A DNA stretch of 64,000 bases from Escherichia phage vB_Eco_Solly. Made by a program: the position numbers and the translations under genes. Under the pieces are notes generated by a model, which was not told the DNA's origin, did no database searches, and saw only the letters and a program-made list of their open reading frames with translations. This document shows positions 972-22,300 of the stretch, piece by piece; position 1 is the stretch's first letter, and every line of letters begins with the position of its first letter. The DNA is taken from the sequence record OY720021, one strand, 5' to 3'.

Positions 972-2255
972 ATGGCTAAAATCAACGAACTTCTGCGCGA
1001 ATCAACCACAACGAATAGCAACTCAATCGGTCGCCCAAATCTCGTTGCTTTGACTCGCGCTACCACTAAATTAATATATTCTGACATTGTAGCAACGCAA
1101 AGAACTAATCAACCTGTTGCTGCTTTTTATGGTATCAAATACCTTAACCCAGACAATGAATTTACATTTAAAACTGGTGCTACTTACGCTGGCGAAGCTG
1201 GATATGTAGACCGAGAACAAATCACAGAATTAACAGAAGAGTCTAAATTAACTCTCAATAAAGGCGATTTATTCAAATATAATAATATCGTTTATAAAGT
1301 ATTAGAAGATACTCCATTTGCTGATATTGAAGAAAGCGACTTAGAGTTAGCTCTTCAAATTGCAATCGTTCTTTTAAAGGTTCGTCTATTTTCTGACGCA
1401 GCGTCAACAAGCAAATTTGAAAGCTCTGATAGTGAAATTGCGGATGCTAGATTCCAGATTAATAAATGGCAAACCGCAGTTAAATCTCGTAAACTTAAAA
1501 CTGGTATCACAGTTGAATTAGCGCAAGATTTAGAAGCAAATGGATTCGATGCTCCTAATTTCTTAGAAGATTTGCTTGCAACTGAAATGGCAGATGAAAT
1601 CAATAAAGATATTCTGCAGTCTTTGATTACAGTGTCAAAACGCTATAAAGTTACAGGAATTACTGATAGTGGATTCATCGATTTGAGTTATGCATCTGCA
1701 CCTGAAGCGGGTCGTTCATTATATCGAATGGTATGTGAAATGGTTTCGCATATCCAAAAAGAATCAACTTATACAGCAACGTTCTGTGTTGCTTCTGCTC
1801 GTGCCGCTGCGATTCTTGCTGCTTCAGGTTGGTTAAAACATAAACCAGAAGATGACAAATATCTTTCACAAAATGCCTACGGGTTCTTAGCTAATGGTTT
1901 ACCACTTTATTGCGATACTAACAGCCCATTAGATTATGTAATCGTTGGCGTAGTAGAAAATATCGGTGAAAAAGAAATTGTTGGATCAATTTTCTATGCT
2001 CCGTATACAGAAGGTCTTGACTTAGATGACCCTGAACATGTAGGTGCATTTAAAGTTGTGGTTGATCCAGAAAGCTTACAACCGTCTATCGGTTTATTAG
2101 TTAGATATGCTTTATCAGCAAATCCTTATACCGTAGCAAAAGATGAAAAAGAAGCAAGAATAATTGACGGTGGAGACATGGATAAAATGGCGGGTCGTTC
2201 AGATTTGTCTGTTTTATTAGGTGTTAAATTACCAAAAATTATTATTGATGAATAA
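972..2255 (+). CDS. 24: Capsid vertex protein gp24 (gp23 paralog)
   Basis: 427 aa; clear paralogy to the gp23 fragment; TATAAATA at 937..944 and SD upstream. Confidence 0.9.
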   Translation: MAKINELLRESTTTNSNSIGRPNLVALTRATTKLIYSDIVATQRTNQPVAAFYGIKYLNPDNEFTFKTGATYAGEAGYVDREQITELTEESKLTLNKGDLFKYNNIVYKVLEDTPFADIEESDLELALQIAIVLLKVRLFSDAASTSKFESSDSEIADARFQINKWQTAVKSRKLKTGITVELAQDLEANGFDAPNFLEDLLATEMADEINKDILQSLITVSKRYKVTGITDSGFIDLSYASAPEAGRSLYRMVCEMVSHIQKESTYTATFCVASARAAAILAASGWLKHKPEDDKYLSQNAYGFLANGLPLYCDTNSPLDYVIVGVVENIGEKEIVGSIFYAPYTEGLDLDDPEHVGAFKVVVDPESLQPSIGLLVRYALSANPYTVAKDEKEARIIDGGDMDKMAGRSDLSVLLGVKLPKIIIDE

Positions 2256-2257
2256 AG

Positions 2258-2282
2258 CAAAGGGACCGAAAGGTCCCTTTTT
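2258..2282. terminator. Bidirectional terminator between convergent genes 24 and rnlB
   Basis: AAAGGGACC-GAAA-GGTCCCTTT with A/T runs on both sides. Confidence 0.7.
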
Positions 2283-2284
2283 AT

Positions 2285-3289
2285 TTAGCTCACCAACTCA
2301 ATCCAAGCTGGACGAAGTACATCTTGTACCATTTTAACTAATTCCTTTTTAATCAAAGAAGGATTATCTGCTTGAGTTAGAGTAATACCTTCACGAGAAG
2401 TTTCTTCCAAAATATCTTGAACAGTTAGCCCCATCACCTTTCCAAAATCTTTAGGACCAATTTCGCCAATTTTAGAAATAACGTTATTTACTCGGTTCAG
2501 TGTAACGTAACAAGCTAAAATTCCCACCAATTTGTTATCAGCTTCTGATAGTTCAACTTTAGCTTTAATAGGCTTATCGGACTTTTTCTTTTCACTAAAT
2601 TTGGAATTCTTGCATTTAATTGCTACACGATTTCCATTACGAAGCCAAGAAGGATAACAAGGTTTCAATACATATCCTTCAGCGGTAAATACTTCGCCTT
2701 TTGCTTCGGCATTCCAAACGCATTTATTTGCATCAACTAATCCAGCATGGTCTACTGTAAAATTATAATCTTGGACGACAGAATCTAAATCATTTGGCAA
2801 TTTAATAAGCTCTTCAAATTTACCGCGACCTAAAAGTGGAGCCATTTTAAATTTAAATGTATTGCAGAATGATTCCATCATATAATCATCGACATAAGTC
2901 ACATCACCACTTTCTGTAATAACAATAATGTCAAATACATAAAAATCTTTATCACCATAATCGACATTCTTCTGAATGCCAGGTCCAGCGAATTCGCCAA
3001 AGACTTGATAAGATACAACCGCTGAAGTTTCCATAATATCTTGTACTGCTTTAATGGAATCAGCGTAATTCTTTAAAATAATTTCATACCCAAAGAAATC
3101 TTCAGCAGGAAGAATGGGGCCAGTACGTTTAGCGCAAGTCACTTTATCACGCTCAATAATCAACGAGAAATTTGTGCCGTGAATCTTTTCACGAGCTACC
3201 CATTCCCCACCAGTCAATCCCAAACTATAAAGTTTTTCAATAAATTTAGAGTTGTAATGATTTTCAAGACTGCTATACTTTTTAAACAT
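2285..3289 (-). CDS. rnlB: RNA ligase 2 (Rnl2)
   Basis: 334 aa; nucleotidyltransferase motif I KIHGTN near N-terminus; T4 rnlB position after gene 24. Confidence 0.85.
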
Positions 3290-3298
3290 AATTAATCC

Positions 3299-3577
3299 TC
3301 AAAATGTAATTTCTAACCAATCACCATCACGCTGATCACTATTGACTTTAAAGCTGAATCCTTCTTTTCTCAGCCAATCACCAATTTCTTCAGTAATCAA
3401 TTTATCACGAGCAATACAATAATAATTAAAATGTGTTTTACCTTGTTCAGCTGCTTTATTAGCAAGTTCCGAAAAATCTTTAATAAAACACTCTAGCTTA
3501 AACTGTTTACTTTTGAATGCTTTTTCGCGTAATTGATTAGCAAAAGATTCATTTTCATAAAGATCATACTGTTCCAT
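3299..3577 (-). CDS. Hypothetical protein (T4 24.2-like position)
   Basis: 92 aa ORF tightly packed between rnlB and hoc. Confidence 0.5.
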   Translation of the reverse strand: MEQYDLYENESFANQLREKAFKSKQFKLECFIKDFSELANKAAEQGKTHFNYYCIARDKLITEEIGDWLRKEGFSFKVNSDQRDGDWLEITF

Positions 3578-3779
3578 TTTTCACCTTTTTATTGATATGT
3601 CTTTTTCTATAGACAACTTTTTCTCGAGTTTCAAATTTATTCTTAGCAGTCATAGCTCGAGCCCATAATACAGCCACTTCTTTCACCTGTAAGTTTAATT
3701 CACGAGCAATTTCAATGAATGACTTTCCAGACTCATGAAGAGTAAACACCACAACCTCAGTTCTCATAATCAATCTCAT
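3564..3779 (-). CDS. Small helix-turn-helix protein (T4 24.3-like position)
   Basis: 71 aa; HTH-like segment SGKSFIEIARELNLQVKEV; true start may be an internal Met. Confidence 0.5.
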   Translation of the reverse strand: MRLIMRTEVVVFTLHESGKSFIEIARELNLQVKEVAVLWARAMTAKNKFETREKVVYRKRHINKKVKNGTV

Positions 3780-3868
3780 GTTATCGAGTTGGTGCCATTA
3801 TATACATCATTTTCTGATTGTGTTTTGTGTGCTTTCAAAATGAAGAAAGGGGCCGAAGCCCCTTATGA

Positions 3869-5287
3869 TTATGGATAGGTATAGATGATACCAGTTTCTA
3901 AAGCAGTTTTGTGAATGATGTATCCATTACGCGATTCTTGGACATCAACTTCTGGATAGTCTTTCATCATCTTCTGAAGAGTGTAACGATGCAGGTAGTA
4001 TTTACTATCTGGATCTTCAGTTTTCCAATCTTTACCTTCTTCAGTCATTTTTTGGATTTCATCCATAACCCACCAACCGCACCAGATGTAAGCTGAGCTA
4101 CGGTGTGGAAGAGGATGAACATAAGGTAATTCACCTTCTGGTTCTGGAGCAACTTTATCAGTTACCTGAACTTGACCTTCTGCCGTAATAGTTTTGCTAT
4201 CATAATCAGCAGCAGTAACAGTTGCAGTAACTTCAATAGTTTGACTTCCAATAGATGAGGTATCAACTGTATATACATTAGTTGACCCTTCTACAGGAGA
4301 AGAATCTTTCTTCCATGAATACTCAATTTGCGCTTCTTCTGGAGCATCAGTGACATTAGCAGTAAATGTAGCCGAAGCATCTTGCTGAACGTTAATAGAA
4401 GGAGGAGACAATGTAACCTGTGGATTCATTGTCTTCTTATTAACCGTTAATGATACTTCATTCGAAGTAACTTCCTTTTCATTGTAATTTTCAGCAGTTA
4501 CTTGGGCTACGCATTTAATTCTTTTTACTCCACTTGTAGTTGGAGTATAGTTAAATGTAGAGTTAGTTTCTCCACCAACTTGTGAATCATCTACATACCA
4601 CTGATACGTAGCAGATGCTCCATCAGGTTGAGAAGCTAAGGCAGCAGTAAATTGAACTGGGGTTCCGATTACTCCTGCTGGAGGACTATCAGGAGTTACT
4701 GCCAAGGTAGTTGTCTGCTCCTTTTTATTAACAGTCAGTGATACTTCATTAGAAGTAACGCTTAGTGCATCATAATCTGTCGCAGTTACTTGAGCCACAC
4801 ACTTAATTCTTTTTACCCCGCTTTCGGCAGGAGTGTAATTGAACGTAGCGTTAGTTGCTTCGCCCACAGGAGAATCATCTACATACCATTGATAAGTAGC
4901 GTTTGCGCCCGATGGCTGCGAAGCTAAAGCGGCAGTAAATTCAATAGCTGTTCCGATTACTCCAGCGTCAGGGCTATTAGGAGTTACAGCTAAGGTGGTC
5001 GTTTGTGTCTTATTTTGAACTGTGATAGTTGTAGTAGCTTCTGCTGTTTCAGCATCAGTATCTGGGACTGGGTTTGTTGCAACTACTTTAATAGTCTTTT
5101 GACCGGCAGGTCCTTTTAATACATAATTAAAAGTTGCTTCAGCTCCATCTTGTGGAACATCATCTACAGTCCAAGCATATGTAATAGGTCCATCTCCAGT
5201 TTGACCACTGGGTGTAGCAGTAAACTGCTGAGTCTGATCTATAACTCCAGTAGGTGTTTTAGGAGTTATATCAACTGTAAAAGCCAT
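3869..5287 (-). CDS. hoc: Highly immunogenic outer capsid protein Hoc with four Ig-like domains
   Basis: 472 aa; Ig-like repeats rich in T/V/S with YxW and KCVAQVTA motifs; two near-identical 96-aa tandem units; aromatic C-terminal capsid-binding region. Confidence 0.85.
   Translation of the reverse strand: MAFTVDITPKTPTGVIDQTQQFTATPSGQTGDGPITYAWTVDDVPQDGAEATFNYVLKGPAGQKTIKVVATNPVPDTDAETAEATTTITVQNKTQTTTLAVTPNSPDAGVIGTAIEFTAALASQPSGANATYQWYVDDSPVGEATNATFNYTPAESGVKRIKCVAQVTATDYDALSVTSNEVSLTVNKKEQTTTLAVTPDSPPAGVIGTPVQFTAALASQPDGASATYQWYVDDSQVGGETNSTFNYTPTTSGVKRIKCVAQVTAENYNEKEVTSNEVSLTVNKKTMNPQVTLSPPSINVQQDASATFTANVTDAPEEAQIEYSWKKDSSPVEGSTNVYTVDTSSIGSQTIEVTATVTAADYDSKTITAEGQVQVTDKVAPEPEGELPYVHPLPHRSSAYIWCGWWVMDEIQKMTEEGKDWKTEDPDSKYYLHRYTLQKMMKDYPEVDVQESRNGYIIHKTALETGIIYTYP
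4433..5008 (-). repeat. Tandem direct duplication of a 288-bp Ig-domain unit inside hoc
   Basis: Units about 4433..4720 and 4721..5008 align with mostly synonymous or conservative differences. Confidence 0.8.
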
Positions 5288-5296
5288 AAGTTATCC

Positions 5297-5977
5297 TTAT
5301 TTTAATGTTACGAAAGAAGAATTGCGTGTTTCACGAATTAAAACTGATCCGTCACGGTTAATGTAATAAATTAAGCTAAATAAAGTTTGGTGTGCTGACG
5401 CATGCTCAAAACTAGTTGGGTGAGATTTCCAATCAGGAGTTTCAGCAATCCATTGATAAATCCACCAAGGAACAGTGCAGAATCCTGGATTTTTTCCAAT
5501 CAGCTGAAGATTCGGACTAAAGTTTTCCGGAAGAGTAAATACAGACGGCTTTTCAGATTCAATAATCTCAGCTACAGCCTGTTCAAACTTTTCTTCAACA
5601 AAGGGAGTATCTTCAATCAAAACTGAGGTATTTTCAGGAATTTTATCCGTTTCTACTACTTCAATTTTAATGTCAGATTTAACCGGAGAATCAATCAGAA
5701 GTGCTGCTTCTGGATTGACTTCTTCATCGTCATATTTTAATCCCTCTGCGGCATCAGCAGCATCAATTAAGTCTTTAATAGATAACCCATCAGTCTCTGG
5801 CATAGGTTCACTAGCGAGCTTCTGGAGGGCTTCTTCAATATCAACAACGATATTATCAAAAGATTTATTCTTTTTGACCTTTATACCAAACTGTTCAGCA
5901 TATTCAGCTAATTTAGCTTTAGCTTCTTTATTATCATCAAGAGCCTTCAGCTCTGCAATATAATCTTTATCTATCAT
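5297..5977 (-). CDS. inh: Inh-like acidic protein (inhibitor of prohead protease)
   Basis: 226 aa acidic ORF between hoc and uvsW; SD GAGGAAA upstream of ATG. Confidence 0.65.
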   Translation of the reverse strand: MIDKDYIAELKALDDNKEAKAKLAEYAEQFGIKVKKNKSFDNIVVDIEEALQKLASEPMPETDGLSIKDLIDAADAAEGLKYDDEEVNPEAALLIDSPVKSDIKIEVVETDKIPENTSVLIEDTPFVEEKFEQAVAEIIESEKPSVFTLPENFSPNLQLIGKNPGFCTVPWWIYQWIAETPDWKSHPTSFEHASAHQTLFSLIYYINRDGSVLIRETRNSSFVTLK

Positions 5978-5990
5978 AATATTTCCTCAG

Positions 5991-5998
5991 TATAAATA
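5991..5998 (+). promoter_or_regulatory. Late promoter TATAAATA upstream of uvsW
   Basis: Exact TATAAATA 30 nt upstream of uvsW ATG. Confidence 0.6.
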
Positions 5999-6027
5999 TA
6001 GATATATTTATTACATGGTATTTAGAC

Positions 6028-7539
6028 ATGATTGACATTAAAGCACATTTTTATGATTTTAGTCACGTGAGAATTGACTGTGAAGAAAGTACATTTCATG
6101 AACTCCGTGATTTCTTTAGCTTTGAAGCTGATGGGTATCGTTTTAATCCGAAATACAAATATGGCCACTGGGATGGACGAATCCGTCTTTTAGATTATAA
6201 TCGTCTTCTTCCATTCGGCTTAGTCGGGCAAATTAAAAAGTTCTGTGATAACTTTGGCTATAAAGCCTGGATTGACCCGCAAATTAACGAAAAAGAAGAA
6301 TTATCAAGAAAAGATTTTGATGAATGGCTTTCTAAATTAGAAATCTATTCAGGAAATAAAAGAATTGAACCGCACTGGTATCAAAAAGATGCAGTGTTCG
6401 AAGGATTAGTTAATCGTCGTAGAATTCTTAATCTTCCAACATCCGCTGGTAAATCGTTAATTCAAGCTTTGCTTGCTCGGTATTATTTGGAAAATTATGA
6501 AGGTAAAATTCTTATCATTGTTCCAACAACTGCCTTAACAACTCAGATGGCTGATGACTTCGTCGACTATCGTCTATTCAGTCATGCAATGATAAAGAAA
6601 ATTGGTGGCGGAGCATCAAAAGATGATAAATATAAAAATGATGCACCAGTCGTTGTTGGTACATGGCAAACTGTAGTTAAACAACCAAAAGAATGGTTCT
6701 CACAGTTTGGAATGATGATGAATGATGAATGCCATCTTGCTACAGGAAAAAGTATTTCATCTATCATATCAGGTTTAAATAACTGCATGTTCAAATTCGG
6801 TTTGTCTGGTTCATTACGTGATGGCAAAGCTAATATCATGCAGTATGTTGGGATGTTTGGTGAAATATTTAAACCAGTAACGACTTCTAAATTAATGGAA
6901 GATGGACAAGTAACTGAGCTAAAAATTAATAGTATTTTTCTTCGCTATCCCGATGAGTTCACTACTAAATTAAAGGGAAAAACTTATCAAGAAGAAATAA
7001 AAATTATTACGGGGCTTAGTAAAAGAAATAAATGGATCGCTAAATTAGCTATTAAGCTTGCGCAAAAAGATGAAAACGCTTTTGTCATGTTTAAACATGT
7101 ATCACATGGTAAAGCTATTTTCGATTTAATTAAAAATGAATACGATAAAGTTTATTACGTATCAGGGGAAGTTGATACCGAAACCCGCAATATAATGAAA
7201 ACCTTAGCTGAAAATGGTAAAGGAATAATTATAGTAGCTAGTTATGGTGTATTTTCTACTGGTATTTCAGTTAAAAATCTGCATCACGTTGTTTTAGCGC
7301 ACGGTGTTAAATCAAAAATCATTGTATTACAAACAATCGGTCGTGTATTACGTAAGCATGGTTCTAAGACAATAGCAACCGTCTGGGACCTCATAGATGA
7401 TTGTGGCGTTAAGCCAAAATCTGCTAATACGAAAAAGAAATATGTTCATTTGAACTATCTTTTAAAACACGGCATTGATCGTATTCAGCGCTATGCAGAT
7501 GAAAAATTTAATTACGTAATGAAAACAGTTAATTTATAA
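6028..7539 (+). CDS. uvsW: UvsW SF2 DNA helicase, helicase core (ORF ends prematurely relative to a fused 587-aa form)
   Basis: 503 aa; Walker A PTSAGKS and DECH box; stop TAA 7537..7539 inside a stretch where the downstream frame is already open. Confidence 0.9.
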   Translation: MIDIKAHFYDFSHVRIDCEESTFHELRDFFSFEADGYRFNPKYKYGHWDGRIRLLDYNRLLPFGLVGQIKKFCDNFGYKAWIDPQINEKEELSRKDFDEWLSKLEIYSGNKRIEPHWYQKDAVFEGLVNRRRILNLPTSAGKSLIQALLARYYLENYEGKILIIVPTTALTTQMADDFVDYRLFSHAMIKKIGGGASKDDKYKNDAPVVVGTWQTVVKQPKEWFSQFGMMMNDECHLATGKSISSIISGLNNCMFKFGLSGSLRDGKANIMQYVGMFGEIFKPVTTSKLMEDGQVTELKINSIFLRYPDEFTTKLKGKTYQEEIKIITGLSKRNKWIAKLAIKLAQKDENAFVMFKHVSHGKAIFDLIKNEYDKVYYVSGEVDTETRNIMKTLAENGKGIIIVASYGVFSTGISVKNLHHVVLAHGVKSKIIVLQTIGRVLRKHGSKTIATVWDLIDDCGVKPKSANTKKKYVHLNYLLKHGIDRIQRYADEKFNYVMKTVNL

Positions 7540-16067: not shown

Positions 16068-16097
16068 ATGGGGACCTTTCGGTCCCCATATTTTTAT
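16068..16097 (+). terminator. Intrinsic terminator after gene 54
   Basis: ATGGGGACC-TTTC-GGTCCCCAT followed by ATTTTTATTT. Confidence 0.7.
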
Positions 16098-16384
16098 TTA
16101 CGGAATGAAATAAAAGCAGCAACTGAAGCAACTAAACTGTCTTCAATATAAACCTCAATTTTTACCGGAGCTTCTGACTCAAATTTACCTGTTACTACAC
16201 CTTGGAAAATACTTTCAGTCTGTTCTGGCTTTGAAAAATTTTCAGAAGGAAAAATTCCGAACTTTTTATCTGTTCCAAAAATTTTGATAAATTCATCGTA
16301 AACTGCTTCATTAAAAGCATTATCAGCAGGAATAACGCCTTCAACTACAAGTTCTTGACCCAAAAAGCGCAAAGAAGATTTCAT
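16094..16384 (-). CDS. Hypothetical protein downstream of alt
   Basis: 96 aa; early promoter and SD GAGGAAC upstream. Confidence 0.5.
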   Translation of the reverse strand: MKSSLRFLGQELVVEGVIPADNAFNEAVYDEFIKIFGTDKKFGIFPSENFSKPEQTESIFQGVVTGKFESEAPVKIEVYIEDSLVASVAAFISFRK

Positions 16385-16415
16385 TTTGTGTTCCTCATGT
16401 TATGTCAGTAAGACT

Positions 16416-16445
16416 ACTATAACACAACATGAGGGACTTGTAAAC
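16416..16445 (-). promoter_or_regulatory. Early promoter (GTTTAC -35, 18-nt spacer, TATAGT -10)
   Basis: Minus strand GTTTAC ... TATAGT; same cassette repeated at 31760..31789. Confidence 0.6.
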
Positions 16446-18502
16446 TACATTTTGAACTTTTTAGACATTCCGTTGATGTTAACCAAAGAAGCTAAGATTT
16501 GAGAAACTTCGTTTTCCTCTTCTTTTGATTCTTCTACAAGGAATTGATTAAATCCAGTCATTGGACGAACTTCACCAGTTTCCATCAAATGATCGCCATC
16601 ATATACTGATTCCTCTAATTGTTCAGAAGGAGGAACGATTGTACCTTCGATTAGATACTTGTTATAAGCAGTTTCTTTCATAAAGTAAGTACTTACTTTA
16701 TTAATCTTCAGTAAAATTCCACGTGGTAGAATAACTTCAGCTTCTGATGGAAATCCTGATAAATGACCTGGAACGATAACTTTGATTCGCTCAGCTCCTT
16801 TAATTACCATACCCACGCTAGTTTCAGCATCTTCATTAGCATATGTAGAATGACTACCCATATGCATCAAATCTTCTGCATCAATGGAACCTTCTCCTTC
16901 ACCAGAAAATACTGCGCCAGAATCATCTAGAGCCATATAGTTTTTACCATGCTCACCGAAGATATTTGGTTTAAGCGATGTGGATACGAAGTTCTTGAAA
17001 TAGAACATTTTATTTTCAATGTTATGACGCAAAGTTTTAAAGGTAACTTCTTGCCCACGATAAAGAGTAGTTCCTGGAGGAAGAACTGAACCTTTAGCAA
17101 ATGCAGAATCCAACGTCTCGATGTGTTTAATAGCTCGTTCCATATATTCTTCACGGGTAGAATCAGGTTTACCTAAAAGGAACGAGTTCATTTCAACATA
17201 TGAATCTGCACAATAATCTTCAATTACATCAGACTCAGCCTGAGTTAATCCTTTTGGAGTTACTTCAGTGCTTGCGTATTCATATGCCTGAGCGGCAGAT
17301 TCATTAATCAATTTATAAATGCCATTCATGACAAATTGAATAATAGCTGTCTTTTCATCTGGTGTAGCTTTAGAACCTTTAACTAAATCATTGATAATTT
17401 TCTTAATAACATCAAAGCTATTAGAAATATTAATGTCAGCAAGATCGCTTAAAATTTTATCAGTTTTATAATCAAAGAATTCTTTATTCTTTAAATATTC
17501 TTGAGAACCTTGATATGTTATATCGCTCTGCAACTTGATAGATGGATCACGTAAACGTGCATGGGCTAATGCAATATGATTTCGGAAACTTTCTAGTTCA
17601 TAATCGTTAGATTTAAAACGAGAAGCACTTCTCATACCACCGATAGCTCCTTTGCTAAAGTTTGAACCAATCTGAATAACGCCAGAGTTCATCGGACCTT
17701 CTGCTTTATATACCGGAACTTTAGATTCAAACTCTTGATATTTCTTAGCAGCGAAGCTATCACCCTGAAGTGAAGCATCAACAGTAGAATATTGAGCTTG
17801 TGCTGCTAATCGACGACTAATTTTAGTTTTCTGAATAACAGCTTGATCCGTGCGCTTATCATTTTCTAAAGCAATAGAAGCAGCAACAGCGACAGCTTTA
17901 GGAACAGCATTACCTGTTTTAACGTCTACATAAACATCACCAACCTTTGATTCAACTTTTGTGAATAACTCAGTTGAAATAGGAGGTACACCTGGAATGT
18001 CTTCTAAATTGGCATTTTTACGGTAAACCATAATATATGCATATTTCTTATCATAGTCCCAGATTTCCTTTAAAAGAACATATCGACCTGCTCCTTTAGT
18101 ACGTACTAAACGGTCAGCAATAACTTGCATTTGACGAGCTGCGCCATTTGTTTTACTTTTTAGTACGCGGAATAGGCATGCGTCGATTTTATACTGTTTC
18201 ATTGTTTGAAGAGCAGTATCAAAAACAGCATTAATGACGCCAATTGGATTTCCACCCAAGTTTCTAAGCTTGACTAACGATAATTTCTCATTAACACCTA
18301 TCATTACGATATGCATCATTTTGTCGCCTGGCTTAACGTTTTTATTCGTATCACCGCCAGAGGTGTATGTACAAAATCTAAATCCAGGAAGCACGCTTTC
18401 TTCACCGGCTTGAATAGCAAAAATTTGTGGTATTTTATGCTTAGGATTTAAGTTAACAACCGGCGCCGAAGCGCCGTCAAATAATTCTGTAATAAGTTCC
18501 AT
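16445..18502 (-). CDS. alt: Alt-like mono-ADP-ribosyltransferase, paralog A (packaged head protein)
   Basis: 685 aa; N-terminus MELITELFD; C-terminal ART elements YRGQ, FVSTSL, SEAEVILPRG. Confidence 0.85.
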   Translation of the reverse strand: MELITELFDGASAPVVNLNPKHKIPQIFAIQAGEESVLPGFRFCTYTSGGDTNKNVKPGDKMMHIVMIGVNEKLSLVKLRNLGGNPIGVINAVFDTALQTMKQYKIDACLFRVLKSKTNGAARQMQVIADRLVRTKGAGRYVLLKEIWDYDKKYAYIMVYRKNANLEDIPGVPPISTELFTKVESKVGDVYVDVKTGNAVPKAVAVAASIALENDKRTDQAVIQKTKISRRLAAQAQYSTVDASLQGDSFAAKKYQEFESKVPVYKAEGPMNSGVIQIGSNFSKGAIGGMRSASRFKSNDYELESFRNHIALAHARLRDPSIKLQSDITYQGSQEYLKNKEFFDYKTDKILSDLADINISNSFDVIKKIINDLVKGSKATPDEKTAIIQFVMNGIYKLINESAAQAYEYASTEVTPKGLTQAESDVIEDYCADSYVEMNSFLLGKPDSTREEYMERAIKHIETLDSAFAKGSVLPPGTTLYRGQEVTFKTLRHNIENKMFYFKNFVSTSLKPNIFGEHGKNYMALDDSGAVFSGEGEGSIDAEDLMHMGSHSTYANEDAETSVGMVIKGAERIKVIVPGHLSGFPSEAEVILPRGILLKINKVSTYFMKETAYNKYLIEGTIVPPSEQLEESVYDGDHLMETGEVRPMTGFNQFLVEESKEEENEVSQILASLVNINGMSKKFKM

Positions 18503-18505
18503 GAT

Positions 18506-20599
18506 TTATCCTTGAACGAACTTGTAAGGCATGTTTGTAATATCTATGCAAGACGCAATAATTCCAAGAGATGATTCTACTTTCTGTTTAACGTTTGATG
18601 AAACAAATGATGCAAAGTCAACTCTGTCTTCTATTTCAATATCACCTGTCATTGCAACCAATTCACCAGTTTCCATTAAATGGTCTCCGTCATAGATTAC
18701 CGATTCAGTGAGCTCTTCCGTGGTCATAACTTCAGCTTGAATGAGTTTTGTATTATTAGATGTTGTTCCGTCATTATTAGAAGCATCAGTTATTTTATTA
18801 ACTTTGACCATCAATCCACGTGGTAGAATAACTTCAGCTTCTGTTGCTATTCCGAGACTTCCTGGATATACAACATTAACTTTATGAGCTCCATCAATTG
18901 CCCATCCTATTTGAACTTTAACGTATTCAGGATTTTCTTTATACGCTCTTATTTCGTTTGGATTAATAGTTATTCCTTCTTCATTTTTATCAACTGTTAA
19001 TTCGTTGCGAGCTTCTGGTTCTAAAAGACCAATACCAGCGTGTGTAATTCCAAAACGTCCAAAAATGATAGGAGTTAAAGAAGTAGATACAAAATTTCTA
19101 AAATAGAACACTTTATTTTTAACTAACGCTTCATATATAGGAGCAGTCATACTTTGAGCACGATAAACTGTAATGCCTTCTGGTATACGGTCACCATTTT
19201 CAAAAGCTGAATCTAAGTTATTTATAGCAGATTCAATTTCTTTTTCACTCATTACATCATATCGTTCTGGATTGTAACGACCTAAAAGAAGATTATTGAT
19301 GTCAGTATATCCTGAACCGCAATATTCTCTAATGCCACGCTTTTGTGATGGAGTATATTTAGAACCATCGCGGGCAATAGTAATATCAATCATTGGACCA
19401 GCACCAATTCCAGAAAAACTGTAAATCATTCGTTTGAGGAATTTAGTTTTTGCTGCGTTCCAGGAATTTTTAGTTATTTCTTCCCAGACTTCATCTGGTT
19501 GTCCTTTACGATTTTTATTATGATTAGCAAGCCATTTATCTTTATAATCTTCAAAGAATTGATTTACAGCTGCTGCGTATTTCTCTAAACATTTTATTGA
19601 AGTAGTTGGTTCATTTTTAATTGCATTAAAAATTACTTCTTTAATTTTTTCTGAAACTTCACCGACTTGACTCATTGGAAAGAATTTATAATCATAGTGA
19701 AGTTCATCTGCCGTTCCTTCAGCAATAATTTTTGCTGCCTTTGTTTTAGAAGCTAATGAATTAATTCCAATTTTCATTTCTTCTGCTTCGGGAATTAAAG
19801 GTGCAGTAGCTGGTTTATTAAAATTAGCTGCTGTAGATTCATACTTCTGGAATAATTCACTTTCAAATCTAGAAGATTCCAATGACTGACTTTGTGCAAT
19901 TGCTCTACGGGAAATTTTAACTTTAACGATTACGGCTTGGTCAGAACGTTTATCATTTTCTTGTGCAATTGATGCTGCAATTGCCTCATTTTTAGTTACT
20001 TGGGCTCCAGTATCTTTATTGATATAAACATCACCGACTTTCGATTCAACTTTAGTAAAGAGCTCGGTACTAATTTCCGGAACTCCTGGAATGTCTTCTA
20101 GTGATACATTTTTGCGATGTATAAGAATATATGCATACTTTTTATCGTAATCCCAGAGTTCCTTAAGAAGGACGTATCTACCACCTGAACGACTACGGAT
20201 AAGTCTATCAGCAATAACTTGAATTTGTCGAGCTTGACCGGCGGTTTTAGACTTAAGAATACGAAGCATACAAGCATCAATTTTATATTGACGCATTGTT
20301 TGCATTGCAACAGTAAAAACTGAATTGATATAATTAATTGGGCTTGGACCAAGACCTTTTAATTTAGCAATTGAACCTTTAGCAGTTAATGTAAAAGGAA
20401 CAATATGCATCATTTTATCGCCCATCTTTAAATCGCGATTAGTATCACCTCCAGATGTATAGGTACATAAACGAAAGCCTGGTTGTTCAATTGCATCATC
20501 AACATGAACTGAAAAAATTTGTGGTATTTTCTTCTTTGGATTTAAGTTTGTAATCGGAAGAGTAGTATCTTCGTCAAATAATTCTGTAATGAGTTCCAT
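18506..20599 (-). CDS. Alt-like mono-ADP-ribosyltransferase, paralog B
   Basis: About 697 aa from second ATG; N-terminal 200 aa near-identical to paralog A; C-terminal VYRAQ, FVSTSL, TEAEVILPRG; late promoter 20623..20630. Confidence 0.85.
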   Translation of the reverse strand: MELITELFDEDTTLPITNLNPKKKIPQIFSVHVDDAIEQPGFRLCTYTSGGDTNRDLKMGDKMMHIVPFTLTAKGSIAKLKGLGPSPINYINSVFTVAMQTMRQYKIDACMLRILKSKTAGQARQIQVIADRLIRSRSGGRYVLLKELWDYDKKYAYILIHRKNVSLEDIPGVPEISTELFTKVESKVGDVYINKDTGAQVTKNEAIAASIAQENDKRSDQAVIVKVKISRRAIAQSQSLESSRFESELFQKYESTAANFNKPATAPLIPEAEEMKIGINSLASKTKAAKIIAEGTADELHYDYKFFPMSQVGEVSEKIKEVIFNAIKNEPTTSIKCLEKYAAAVNQFFEDYKDKWLANHNKNRKGQPDEVWEEITKNSWNAAKTKFLKRMIYSFSGIGAGPMIDITIARDGSKYTPSQKRGIREYCGSGYTDINNLLLGRYNPERYDVMSEKEIESAINNLDSAFENGDRIPEGITVYRAQSMTAPIYEALVKNKVFYFRNFVSTSLTPIIFGRFGITHAGIGLLEPEARNELTVDKNEEGITINPNEIRAYKENPEYVKVQIGWAIDGAHKVNVVYPGSLGIATEAEVILPRGLMVKVNKITDASNNDGTTSNNTKLIQAEVMTTEELTESVIYDGDHLMETGELVAMTGDIEIEDRVDFASFVSSNVKQKVESSLGIIASCIDITNMPYKFVQG

Positions 20600-20622
20600 C
20601 ATATCCTCTCTAGTGTTTATTC

Positions 20623-20630
20623 TATTTATA
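20623..20630 (-). promoter_or_regulatory. Late promoter TATAAATA for the alt paralog operon
   Basis: Plus-strand TATTTATA 24 nt upstream of alt paralog B ATG. Confidence 0.6.
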
Positions 20631-20651
20631 AAATTAAAGGCCCGAAGGCCT

Positions 20652-20840
20652 TTAATAATCTATTGGTAAGAGAGTACGATATATTTCAAACTTTGGACCT
20701 TTTTCATAGGCATCAAATGTTTCTGTGAATTTATTATAAGCATATGCATCTATAAATTCAATCATGATTTGTGATACAGAAGTAGAAACATCTCCACCTT
20801 CTTTTTGAGCCACGACAATTGTTTCTAAGTAAGCTTTCAT
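20652..20840 (-). CDS. Hypothetical small protein between ligase and alt
   Basis: 62 aa ORF; start overlaps gene 30 stop. Confidence 0.45.
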   Translation of the reverse strand: MKAYLETIVVAQKEGGDVSTSVSQIMIEFIDAYAYNKFTETFDAYEKGPKFEIYRTLLPIDY

Positions 20841-22300
20841 AAACCAGTTACCTCATGAAAATCGCCAAATACATCTTCGAACGTATTAGCTTTAGTTTTA
20901 TCTTCACGTAAACGAATCGCAATCGGAAGAAATAATTTAACGTAATCAGTGCGGCCATCAGATTTTAACCAACCGTTGCATTCGCACTCTAGAATTTTTC
21001 CAATATAATAATTTTGGTTTTCCATAATGCGAGTGCGGTCAAGTTCATGTGATTTTACGCCGGCTTTATCTTTTAAGCCTGAACCGGCATTTACCTTAAT
21101 TTTTCCACACTCTGACTCAAGAATAAATCCACCTGCTTTAGTAGGGTCTTTACGGTGAGGATAAATTCCTACAATTTTTAAATCAACATCAATTACTTCT
21201 TTAAATTTATAGAGATTTTTTGAACGAGCATTTTCCCATAATCCATCGATATTTTTGAGAATAATACCTTCAAGACCTTGGTCAATATACTTTTTATAAA
21301 TTACCTTAGCTTCATCTAGGTTATTTACTACTTGGTTTTCAATTAAAATTACTTTATCATATCCTGATGTCATTTGTTCTAATTTAGAAAAACGTACATC
21401 ATATTTTAAACGAAATGCTGGAAGACCGTATATTTCTACCAACGGAACATAATCCCAGACCTGAAACTTCATGCATTGTGCTTCTTTTTCAGAAATGGTT
21501 CCCTTTAAAGATTTATTGGCGATTCCATTAGAAGCAGTACGTGATTCAGCTACTTCGGCGAATTCTTTAGCTTTACTAATTTCAGGATAAGCATCAAAAA
21601 GAAAATCTAGGCCTTCTGGCTCCTTTTTAACTTGCTCATGGTATACCAATTCGCCATCAATTAACACACCTTCTGGATGAATCTGGCGGGCTTCAGCAGT
21701 CATTTTGATTAACTCTTCCTTAAGAAGATCTAATCCTAGATATTCATTACCAGCTCGTGATAAAAGACGAACATCATCTAATTCATCACCTCTGACTTCA
21801 GCAAAGCACCGAGCTCCATCAGCTTTTAATTGGGCAAAGGCTGGAAATTTGATATTCTTATTAATGCCTTTTTCATCATAAGAACTTGCCAGCATTTGAG
21901 GTTGTTCAGGAATTAAACCTGGCCAAACTTTGTTTGCAATAGATACTGATGCACCACATTCAAGGTCTCGCATCATCACCCGACGCAAAACTTCAACGTC
22001 ATCTTTTTTACCGTCAGCAATATATCCAGTTAATTCCTCAATTGCCGCATTTCCGGTCAATTTCCGAGTAGCTAACGTGAATTCAATGAAGTCAAGCATA
22101 TCGGTAAGAGTCAACATTCCAAAACTCTGGGTAGCAATACCAGGTTTAGGCCATTTCTTGATATAATACTGTAACCCACGAGAATAAGTCAGACGATATA
22201 CTCGTTTAAGCAATTCATTATCTTTATTCTTTTCAAGAATTGCTTGCTTCTGCTTAGTTGAACCAATAGATGCTATTTCGTTTAGAATTTTAAGAATCAT
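20837..22300 (-). CDS. 30: ATP-dependent DNA ligase gp30
   Basis: 487 aa; adenylation motif I KADGAR. Confidence 0.9.
   Translation of the reverse strand: MILKILNEIASIGSTKQKQAILEKNKDNELLKRVYRLTYSRGLQYYIKKWPKPGIATQSFGMLTLTDMLDFIEFTLATRKLTGNAAIEELTGYIADGKKDDVEVLRRVMMRDLECGASVSIANKVWPGLIPEQPQMLASSYDEKGINKNIKFPAFAQLKADGARCFAEVRGDELDDVRLLSRAGNEYLGLDLLKEELIKMTAEARQIHPEGVLIDGELVYHEQVKKEPEGLDFLFDAYPEISKAKEFAEVAESRTASNGIANKSLKGTISEKEAQCMKFQVWDYVPLVEIYGLPAFRLKYDVRFSKLEQMTSGYDKVILIENQVVNNLDEAKVIYKKYIDQGLEGIILKNIDGLWENARSKNLYKFKEVIDVDLKIVGIYPHRKDPTKAGGFILESECGKIKVNAGSGLKDKAGVKSHELDRTRIMENQNYYIGKILECECNGWLKSDGRTDYVKLFLPIAIRLREDKTKANTFEDVFGDFHEVTGL

Follow-up and report, generated by a model that had tools for sequence, protein, structure and literature searches.

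The best described relative of the proteins considered here is the Alt protein of phage T4, a packaged NAD+:arginine mono-ADP-ribosyltransferase that targets the alpha subunit of RNA polymerase as well as MazF (PMC5512222, PMC9697503). Both the mRNA and the protein of T4 alt appear late, after gp33/45/55 (PMC9697503), and gp21 cleaves the protein at ITE-6 and LTE-619, so that it loses 6 residues from its N-terminus and 63 from its C-terminus (Ali et al. 2017; PMC5694885). Alt.-1/alt.-2 have been described as a paralogous duplicate of alt, and a full-length duplicate, comparable to the one treated here, is found in Aeromonas phage 44RR (Nolan et al. 2006; PMC1524935). Here we analyse the alt locus of Escherichia phage vB_Eco_Solly on a stretch of 64,000 nucleotides (nt) from sequence record OY720021, referred to throughout as the window, in which two full-length genes for Alt-like ADP-ribosyltransferases (ARTs) lie in tandem. 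The pair is real, already known and ordinary, and we regard it as virtually certain that the locus is the standard Tequatrovirus alt locus in its common two-gene form, known and widespread. The two genes are:

18506-20599, minus strand: alt, the upstream copy, 697 amino acids (aa), taken from its second ATG; positional orthologue of T4 alt.
16445-18502, minus strand: Alt2, the second Alt paralogue and downstream copy, 685 aa, from open reading frame (ORF) calling and homology.

The coordinates, the sizes of 685 and about 697 aa, the shared strand and the 3-bp separation given in a first-pass annotation of the window all proved correct on ORF calling, and the spacer between the ORFs is exactly 3 nt (TAA-atc-ATG, 18508-18500). 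Read from its first ATG (18506-20602), the upstream ORF encodes 698 aa, and from the second, at 20599, it encodes 697 aa. The second ATG is the more probable alt start, being preceded by a GAGG at a distance of 5 nt and giving the MELITE beginning common to the Alt proteins of T4, T2 and T6. In T4 the genes follow each other in the order 30, alt.1, alt, alt.-1, alt.-2 and alt.-3, succeeded by the convergent gene 54. Since this order matches that of the window, the upstream gene (71% identity to T4 Alt) can be equated with alt, and the downstream gene sits where T4 has alt.-1 (61 aa) and alt.-2 (67 aa).

The window is that of a Tequatrovirus and is 99% identical to phage PhiZZ23. The 5-kb region of the locus is 97.5-99% identical to many Tequatrovirus genomes, with 368 of the 544 matching records covering at least 80% of it, and the gene order 54, alt.-3, two ART genes, alt.1 and ligase is shared with Tequatrovirus relatives. 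RefSeq applies the label 'Alt-like RNA polymerase ADP-ribosyltransferase (x2)' to PhiZZ23, RB14, RB51, RB18, RB68, wV7 and others, T2 and T6 carry the same pair with lengths of 685 and 697 aa, and RB32 also possesses the pair. The alt.-2 or Alt-like gene of T2, T6, RB14, RB32 and RB51 corresponds to the downstream gene of the window without any material difference. The C-terminal 446 aa of Alt2 recur at an identity of at least 95% in 401 phage records, and the protein as such is 97-99.8% identical across hundreds of records. Alt2 is nearly invariant, while Alt falls into two identity bands in the phage collection, one of at least 95% (292 records) and one of 60-80% (212 records).

The first-pass annotation had presented the duplicated pair as something unusual, a view that would fall if reference T-even genomes carried the same two paralogues. 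This is essentially what we found: T2, T6, RB14, RB32, RB51, RB18, RB68 and wV7 all have the pair and T4 is the outlier, so that the apparent novelty stems from the use of T4 as the reference. The T4 GenBank record itself already calls alt.-1/alt.-2 a duplicate of alt. Nomenclature is inconsistent; elsewhere the Alt2 gene goes by alt.-2, alt.-1 or 'Alt-like RNA polymerase ADP-ribosyltransferase', and the annotations disagree on its nature, with 'hypothetical protein / alt.-1' in T2, 'apparent insertion in alt.-2' in T6 and 'old duplication of the first part of alt' in T4. A search of the literature on alt.-2 and the function of a second Alt returned only Nolan et al. (2006) and no experimental work on the activity or the targets of the second enzyme.

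Alt and Alt2 are 41% identical (BLASTP, E = 3e-164), and this figure is distributed very unevenly along the two chains. Residues 1-238 are 68% identical, with values of 50-83% in 30-residue windows; the N-terminal ~200 residues had previously been called 'nearly identical', and although every string quoted in support of this (MELITELFD, CTYTSGGDTN, KIDAC, GRYVLLKE, EDIPGVP and STELFTKVESKVGDVY) is indeed common to both proteins, 68% identity makes the wording an overstatement. The divergence proposed for the central regions is borne out by pairwise alignment, with a helical centre (about 240-430) of only 10-23% identity. Conservation rises again to 30-56% in the ART core, falls to 10-16% in the loop between the S-T-S and E-x-E motifs, and returns near the C-terminus in a common YDGDHLMETGE block. 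Both proteins have the same domain layout: a 6-residue N-terminal propeptide that closes with I-T-E, an N-terminal alpha/beta domain (conserved, ~230 residues), a helical linker (variable, ~180 residues), an ADP-ribosyltransferase domain of the C3/VIP2 type with an E-x-E motif, an L-x-E site and a C-terminal propeptide. Modelled alone, the shared N-terminal domain gives a confident structure, with a predicted local distance difference test score (pLDDT) of 85.8.

That both are alt-like ADP-ribosyltransferase genes, as proposed at the outset, is confirmed by profile searches. PF03496 (ADPrib_exo_Tox; gathering cutoff 23.4 bits) is matched by Alt with 129.9 bits and by Alt2 with 72 bits, over profile positions 2-195 and 13-191 of 196, respectively, and both proteins match phrog_802, 'Alt-like RNA polymerase ADP-ribosyltransferase', end to end (positions 2-674 of 674; 854 and 910 bits). 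PF26846 is listed as a precomputed Pfam family on these proteins; our local Pfam scan (E<=0.01) gave only PF03496. A scan against NCBIfam gave no family match for the three proteins, and no PDB sequence matched the 685-aa protein at E<=0.01.

The catalytic set comprises Y479-R480, S505-T-S507 and E587-A-E589 in Alt (697-aa numbering) and Y481-R482, S507-T-S509 and E587-A-E589 in Alt2. When both proteins are aligned with ModA, ModB and Alt of T4, the catalytic arginine, the first serine of S-T-S and both glutamates of E-x-E are invariant, and the R, S and E-x-E residues are likewise invariant in a 20-member family alignment. The R / S-T-S / E-x-E elements noticed in the first reading are hence in register with those of ModA and ModB, and a check for the loss of catalytic residues from one copy found them intact in both on a proper alignment. 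Within the R-S-E toxin family it is E-x-E, and not Q-x-E, that represents the arginine-specific form of the motif. In T4 Alt, a glutamate-to-alanine substitution in E-x-E ('E577A') abolishes activity (PMC11404850); in the T4 Alt RefSeq entry the motif reads E574-M-E576 and residue 577 is a valine, which suggests an offset of one in the published numbering.

The fold was tested for Alt2 only, with an AlphaFold (AF2) model of pLDDT 72.5 overall and ~80-90 in the ART core. The ART domain of this model matches Vis (4xzk), Certhrax, C3bot, CDTa and VIP2 (Foldseek E = 8e-8 to 4e-5, probability 1.00), with target-normalised template modelling (TM) scores of 0.55-0.68 against the single-domain toxins. 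The R-S-E toxins C3, VIP2, iota, CDTa and Vis (PF03496) have the catalytic fold and motif set in common with the window proteins at a sequence identity of 14-21%. They differ in delivery: the toxins of the C3/VIP2 group travel by secretion or through a binary toxin pore, whereas the window proteins would be ejected from the phage capsid.

Among the window, T2 and T6 the ratio of nonsynonymous to synonymous substitution (dN/dS) lies at 0.03-0.05 in Alt2 and 0.05-0.07 in Alt, with a dS of 0.08-0.17. By this measure both genes are under strong purifying selection and neither is decaying; both look functional. One could argue that Alt2 is conserved because it serves the capsid or the ejection process, as a packaged structural or head-core protein that is no longer a working enzyme or is only a binding decoy. 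In its favour, conservation between the paralogues is highest in the N-terminal domain and at the two propeptide sites; a core or structural function separate from catalysis has been ascribed to Alt (PMC11404850); and the ART domain of Alt2 has about half the Pfam score of that of Alt and a low-confidence loop in its model. Such an enzymatically dead Alt2 is nevertheless quite improbable in our judgement, given that R482, S507-T-S509 and E587-A-E589 are intact and invariant in the family, that the whole gene including the ART domain evolves at a dN/dS of 0.03-0.05, and that the ART fold is matched to solved R-S-E toxins with full Foldseek probability.

The single full-length alt of T4 can be traced to the loss of a second gene. 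The breakpoints lie in two copies of a short direct repeat:

18155-18163, minus strand: first copy of the 9-bp direct repeat CTAAAAAGT, 5' breakpoint of the T4-type deletion.
16456-16464, minus strand: second copy of the 9-bp direct repeat CTAAAAAGT, 3' breakpoint of the T4-type deletion.

The first ~350 nt of the Alt2 gene have a position-by-position counterpart in the T4 remnant, except for a 1-nt deletion that splits the ORF; the remnant then jumps to the last ~20 nt of the gene and the shared downstream sequence. In the intact Alt2 gene the repeat is found at nt 340 and again at nt 2039, and the T4 junction falls within it, from which we conclude that T4 lost 1,699 bp by repeat-mediated deletion. 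The alignment points to T4 as the phage that lost sequence, and not to the others as having gained it, and on this comparison the single alt of T4 is a derived state, its second gene having been destroyed by the 1,699-bp deletion together with a 1-nt frameshift. The PHROG families that derive from the T4 remnants give 138/129 bits with Alt2 versus 78/70 bits with Alt. The T4-type junction is present in 91 records, which comprise laboratory lines of T4 as well as natural isolates (slur03, vB_EcoM_112, Salmonella phage SG1); since the latter carry it too, it belongs to an allele in circulation and is no artefact of laboratory T4. The statement that T4 carries a single alt is thus right as far as full-length genes go, but it describes a derived deletion state common to these 91 records.

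T4 also differs from the window in the gene that it has kept. T4 Alt (NP_049811) shares with the window its flanks (alt.1 and ligase upstream), the late promoter, the MELITE start, the R / S-T-S / E-x-E set and the ITE-6 and LTE sites. Its identity to window Alt is 71% overall, ~100% over residues 1-240 and above 90% in the last 80, and between these it varies from 13 to 73%: the centre is 13-40%, the ART domain 66% and the loop from S-T-S to E-x-E ~23% identical. The window gene (18506-20599) and T4 alt (NC_000866, 123454-125502) are mosaic alleles. Window Alt matches the Alt of T2 and T6 in length, with a dN of 0.011-0.012, and Alt2 has the same architecture as T4 Alt at 41% identity. As the linker and the specificity loop, the parts expected to set specificity, differ, the targets of T4 Alt cannot simply be assumed for either of the window proteins.

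Expression signals were located as follows:

20623-20630, minus strand: T4-type late promoter motif TATAAATA, 21-24 nt 5' of the alt start.
20636-20653, minus strand: hairpin resembling a terminator (aaaggccttcgggccttt with a T run), where alt.1 ends, read from the sequence.
18509-18513, minus strand: AAGGA Shine-Dalgarno sequence for Alt2, within the last alt codons and 6 nt before the ATG at 18502.

The terminator-like hairpin and its T run occupy 20653-20631, directly before TATAAATA, and by its position the hairpin (20653-20636) is predicted to divide an early gene 30/alt.1 unit from a late alt unit. T2, T6 and T4 have the same hairpin sequence ahead of TATAAATA and the motif at the same place, and the pair thereby possesses, as far as the motif goes, a conserved late promoter of the gp55 type at 20630-20623. 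In the whole window TATAAATA occurs 12 times against a chance expectation of 9.2 +/- 3.1 and is not enriched; the weight therefore rests on the position of the motif and not on the match itself. The earlier proposal of one late promoter in front of the pair agrees with this site and with the arrangement at the gene junction, where an AAGGA inside the end of alt suggests that translation of Alt2 is coupled to that of alt. The promoter had further been placed only upstream of the distal copy, and this needs qualifying: a scan of the window revealed no TATAAATA directly in front of the downstream copy, but a second exact one lies inside alt at 19226-19219, in coding sequence (A-I-N-N) 715 nt upstream of Alt2. 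This internal motif is kept in T2 and T6 and is missing from the T4 allele; it may serve as a separate late promoter for the second gene or have arisen by chance.

The signals for packaging and processing are present in duplicate. In T4, Alt amounts to about 40 copies per head. The N-terminal gp21 site I-T-E6 occurs in both window proteins (MELITE|LFD), E6 is invariant in the family, and the suggestion that the shared N-terminus is a prohead-protease site finds its counterpart in the published ITE-6 site of T4 Alt, kept in both copies. A C-terminal L-x-E site (LTE-632 in Alt, LEE-631 in Alt2) lies just before the S-x-YDGD block, and E631, Y634 and D635-G-D637 are invariant in the family alignment. 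Because both gp21 sites are kept and T4 alt is expressed late, it is plausible that both proteins are packaged, processed and injected.

Alt2 might also be expressed and left unpackaged, acting late inside the producing cell as ModA and ModB act early. The literature searched contained no virion data for Alt2, and ModA and ModB demonstrate that T4 ARTs need no packaging (PMC5512222). We judge this to be unlikely, since Alt2 begins with the same nine residues as Alt (MELITELFD), the gp21 site ITE-6 among them, and also has the C-terminal L-x-E site and the YDGDHLMETGE propeptide, signals that matter only in the prohead, and since it retains the 230-residue N-terminal domain that ModA and ModB are without. 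That both proteins are packaged, injected and active, by analogy with T4 Alt, is in our estimation somewhat better than an even prospect.

The relationship between the two genes becomes clearer in the light of Dhakavirus QL01 (KT176190), which carries three tandem Alt-like genes of 694, 681 and 707 aa, 3 bp apart, at the same locus. They stand head to tail in the same place between alt.1/ligase and alt.-3/gene 54, three copies where the window has two, and the array occupies 1096-7356 of the analysed KT176190 stretch. The third copy (QL01_199) has S-A-S in place of S-T-S, and a strict scan of it with E.E[VW][IM] found no E-x-E.

In the N-terminal regions of Alt and Alt2 the proportion of synonymous differences (pS) is 0.70, dS is about 2.1 and thus saturated, dN/dS is about 0.14, and the longest identical run measures 18 nt. 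Judged from the sequences, the paralogy is old. Saturated dS and the shortness of the longest identical run rule out a recent duplication or gene conversion as the source of the N-terminal similarity. The first-pass annotation had implied a recent event, and a pair in tandem on the same strand, 3 bp apart and with similar N-termini, is what a recent in-situ duplication now diverging would look like, in a genome caught at an unusual evolutionary stage. This scenario is barely credible: besides the synonymous divergence, the pair is fixed at an identity of at least 95% in about 400 genomes, and each ART domain is closer to a copy in QL01 than to its neighbour. The ART domain of window Alt is 95% identical to that of QL01 copy 1 in protein and 79% in nucleotide sequence (their N-terminal domains are 47% identical) and that of Alt2 is 59% identical to copy 3, compared with 35% between Alt and Alt2.

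N-terminal domains, by contrast, are 68% identical within the window, 67-89% within QL01 and 42-47% across the genera. The N-terminal domains thus sort with the genome that carries them and the ART domains with their position in the array, irrespective of genus, and because of this grouping the locus may be viewed as a modular array, with a lineage-specific loading domain and enzyme modules that have histories of their own; the pattern rests on one cross-genus comparison, window versus QL01, among ~1,200 Straboviridae records that bear Alt, and is a lead. Recent horizontal transfer was considered as the cause of the 95% ART match to QL01 and is only partly supported, the nucleotide identity of 79% comparing with 68-71% in the flanking genes. 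The match would appear to reflect mostly strong constraint, perhaps with an old exchange.

A more far-reaching reading is that the alt locus is an array of interchangeable injected-effector cassettes, in which a genome-specific N-terminus for capsid loading is combined with ART modules, and that the targets of Alt2 differ from those of Alt, possibly being a defence or toxin-antitoxin component and not RNA polymerase. The ART 'warhead' modules may then be kept, swapped or lost independently, with one in T4, two in T2, T6 and the window, and three in QL01. The unrelated specificity loops of the copies and the differing domain groupings make the data compatible with this reading, which we advance tentatively and lean somewhat against.

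Gene structure, homology, catalytic residues, purifying selection, distribution and the origin of the T4 remnant were established directly from the sequences. Drawing on the experiments with T4 Alt, we infer late expression, packaging, gp21 processing and arginine ADP-ribosylation for both proteins. The single late promoter TATAAATA (20630-20623) would drive alt, followed by the probably coupled Alt2 and then alt.-3, up to a bidirectional terminator. Both proteins would be made late and built into the prohead core, where the gp21 protease would trim both ends of each. Ejected with the DNA, they would use NAD+ to mono-ADP-ribosylate arginines of host proteins within seconds of infection. In the 'alteration' of RNA polymerase by which Alt is functionally defined, Arg265 is the site on the alpha subunit that is modified by T4 Alt. 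The substrate sets of Alt and Alt2 would be expected to differ, since the linker and the loop from S-T-S to E-x-E (10-16% identity) are unrelated between them; that the two copies have different targets, as suggested in the first-pass annotation, is pure inference and, to us, evenly balanced. Taken as one judgement that blends identification, packaging and activity, and targets, we hold this overall account to be the best explanation and probably correct.

Several observations weigh against it. The Alt2 model is poorly defined between S-T-S and E-x-E (pLDDT <50 at 514-537) and its Pfam score lies below that of Alt (72 versus 130 bits). The 91 natural and laboratory genomes without the second gene mean that it is dispensable on at least some hosts. 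The internal TATAAATA and the Shine-Dalgarno arrangement make the transcript and translation levels of Alt2 uncertain. Finally, the literature on T4-like virion proteomics that mentions Alt yielded nothing on the second copy, and no direct evidence was found for Alt2 in virions, for its cleavage or for its enzymatic activity.

The two genes belong to a compact minus-strand unit that spans 20,840-16,060, whose remaining features are:

20837-22300, minus strand: gene 30 (DNA ligase), upstream neighbour of alt.1.
20652-20840, minus strand: alt.1, 62 aa, Pfam PF24647 'Phage blade protein'.
16390-16437, minus strand: stable RNA hairpin between Alt2 and alt.-3 (-23.4 kcal/mol, z = -4.1).
16416-16445, minus strand: T4-early-like promoter GTTTACA-17-TATAGT, overlapping the Alt2/alt.-3 hairpin.
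16094-16384, minus strand: alt.-3, 96 aa, DUF5498 (ORF calling and Pfam), final gene of the cluster.
16068-16089, both strands: bidirectional terminator hairpin between alt.-3 (minus) and gene 54 (plus), with a 9-bp stem and 6 GC pairs.

The alt.1 protein matches PF24647 over its full length (100 bits) and its gene shares 4 nt with the end of the ligase gene. The hairpin between Alt2 and alt.-3 (16437-16390), which T4 retains with an A-U to G-U change, pairs the GAGG ribosome-binding site of alt.-3 (16396-16393). The early-like promoter (16445-16416) consists of GTTTACA, a 17-nt spacer and TG-n-TATAGT. A late transcript reading through from Alt2 would mask the ribosome-binding site, while a transcript starting near 16409 would be without the 5' arm of the hairpin and leave the site exposed; because of this difference the arrangement suggests an early transcript of its own as the main template for alt.-3 translation. 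C-terminal extensions of T4 alt.-3 escape the CmdTAC defence (PMC11618068).

As a discovery the pair carries little weight, being annotated in hundreds of genomes and its duplication having been noted in the T4 record and in 2006. Its significance lies in what it says about the reference phage: injected phage ADP-ribosyltransferases are known experimentally almost entirely from T4, which is atypical in that it lacks the second enzyme and in that its Alt allele is not the one found in T2, T6 and the window. T2 and T6 probably inject two arginine ADP-ribosyltransferases, a point that is relevant whenever T2, T4 and T6 are compared against bacterial defence systems.

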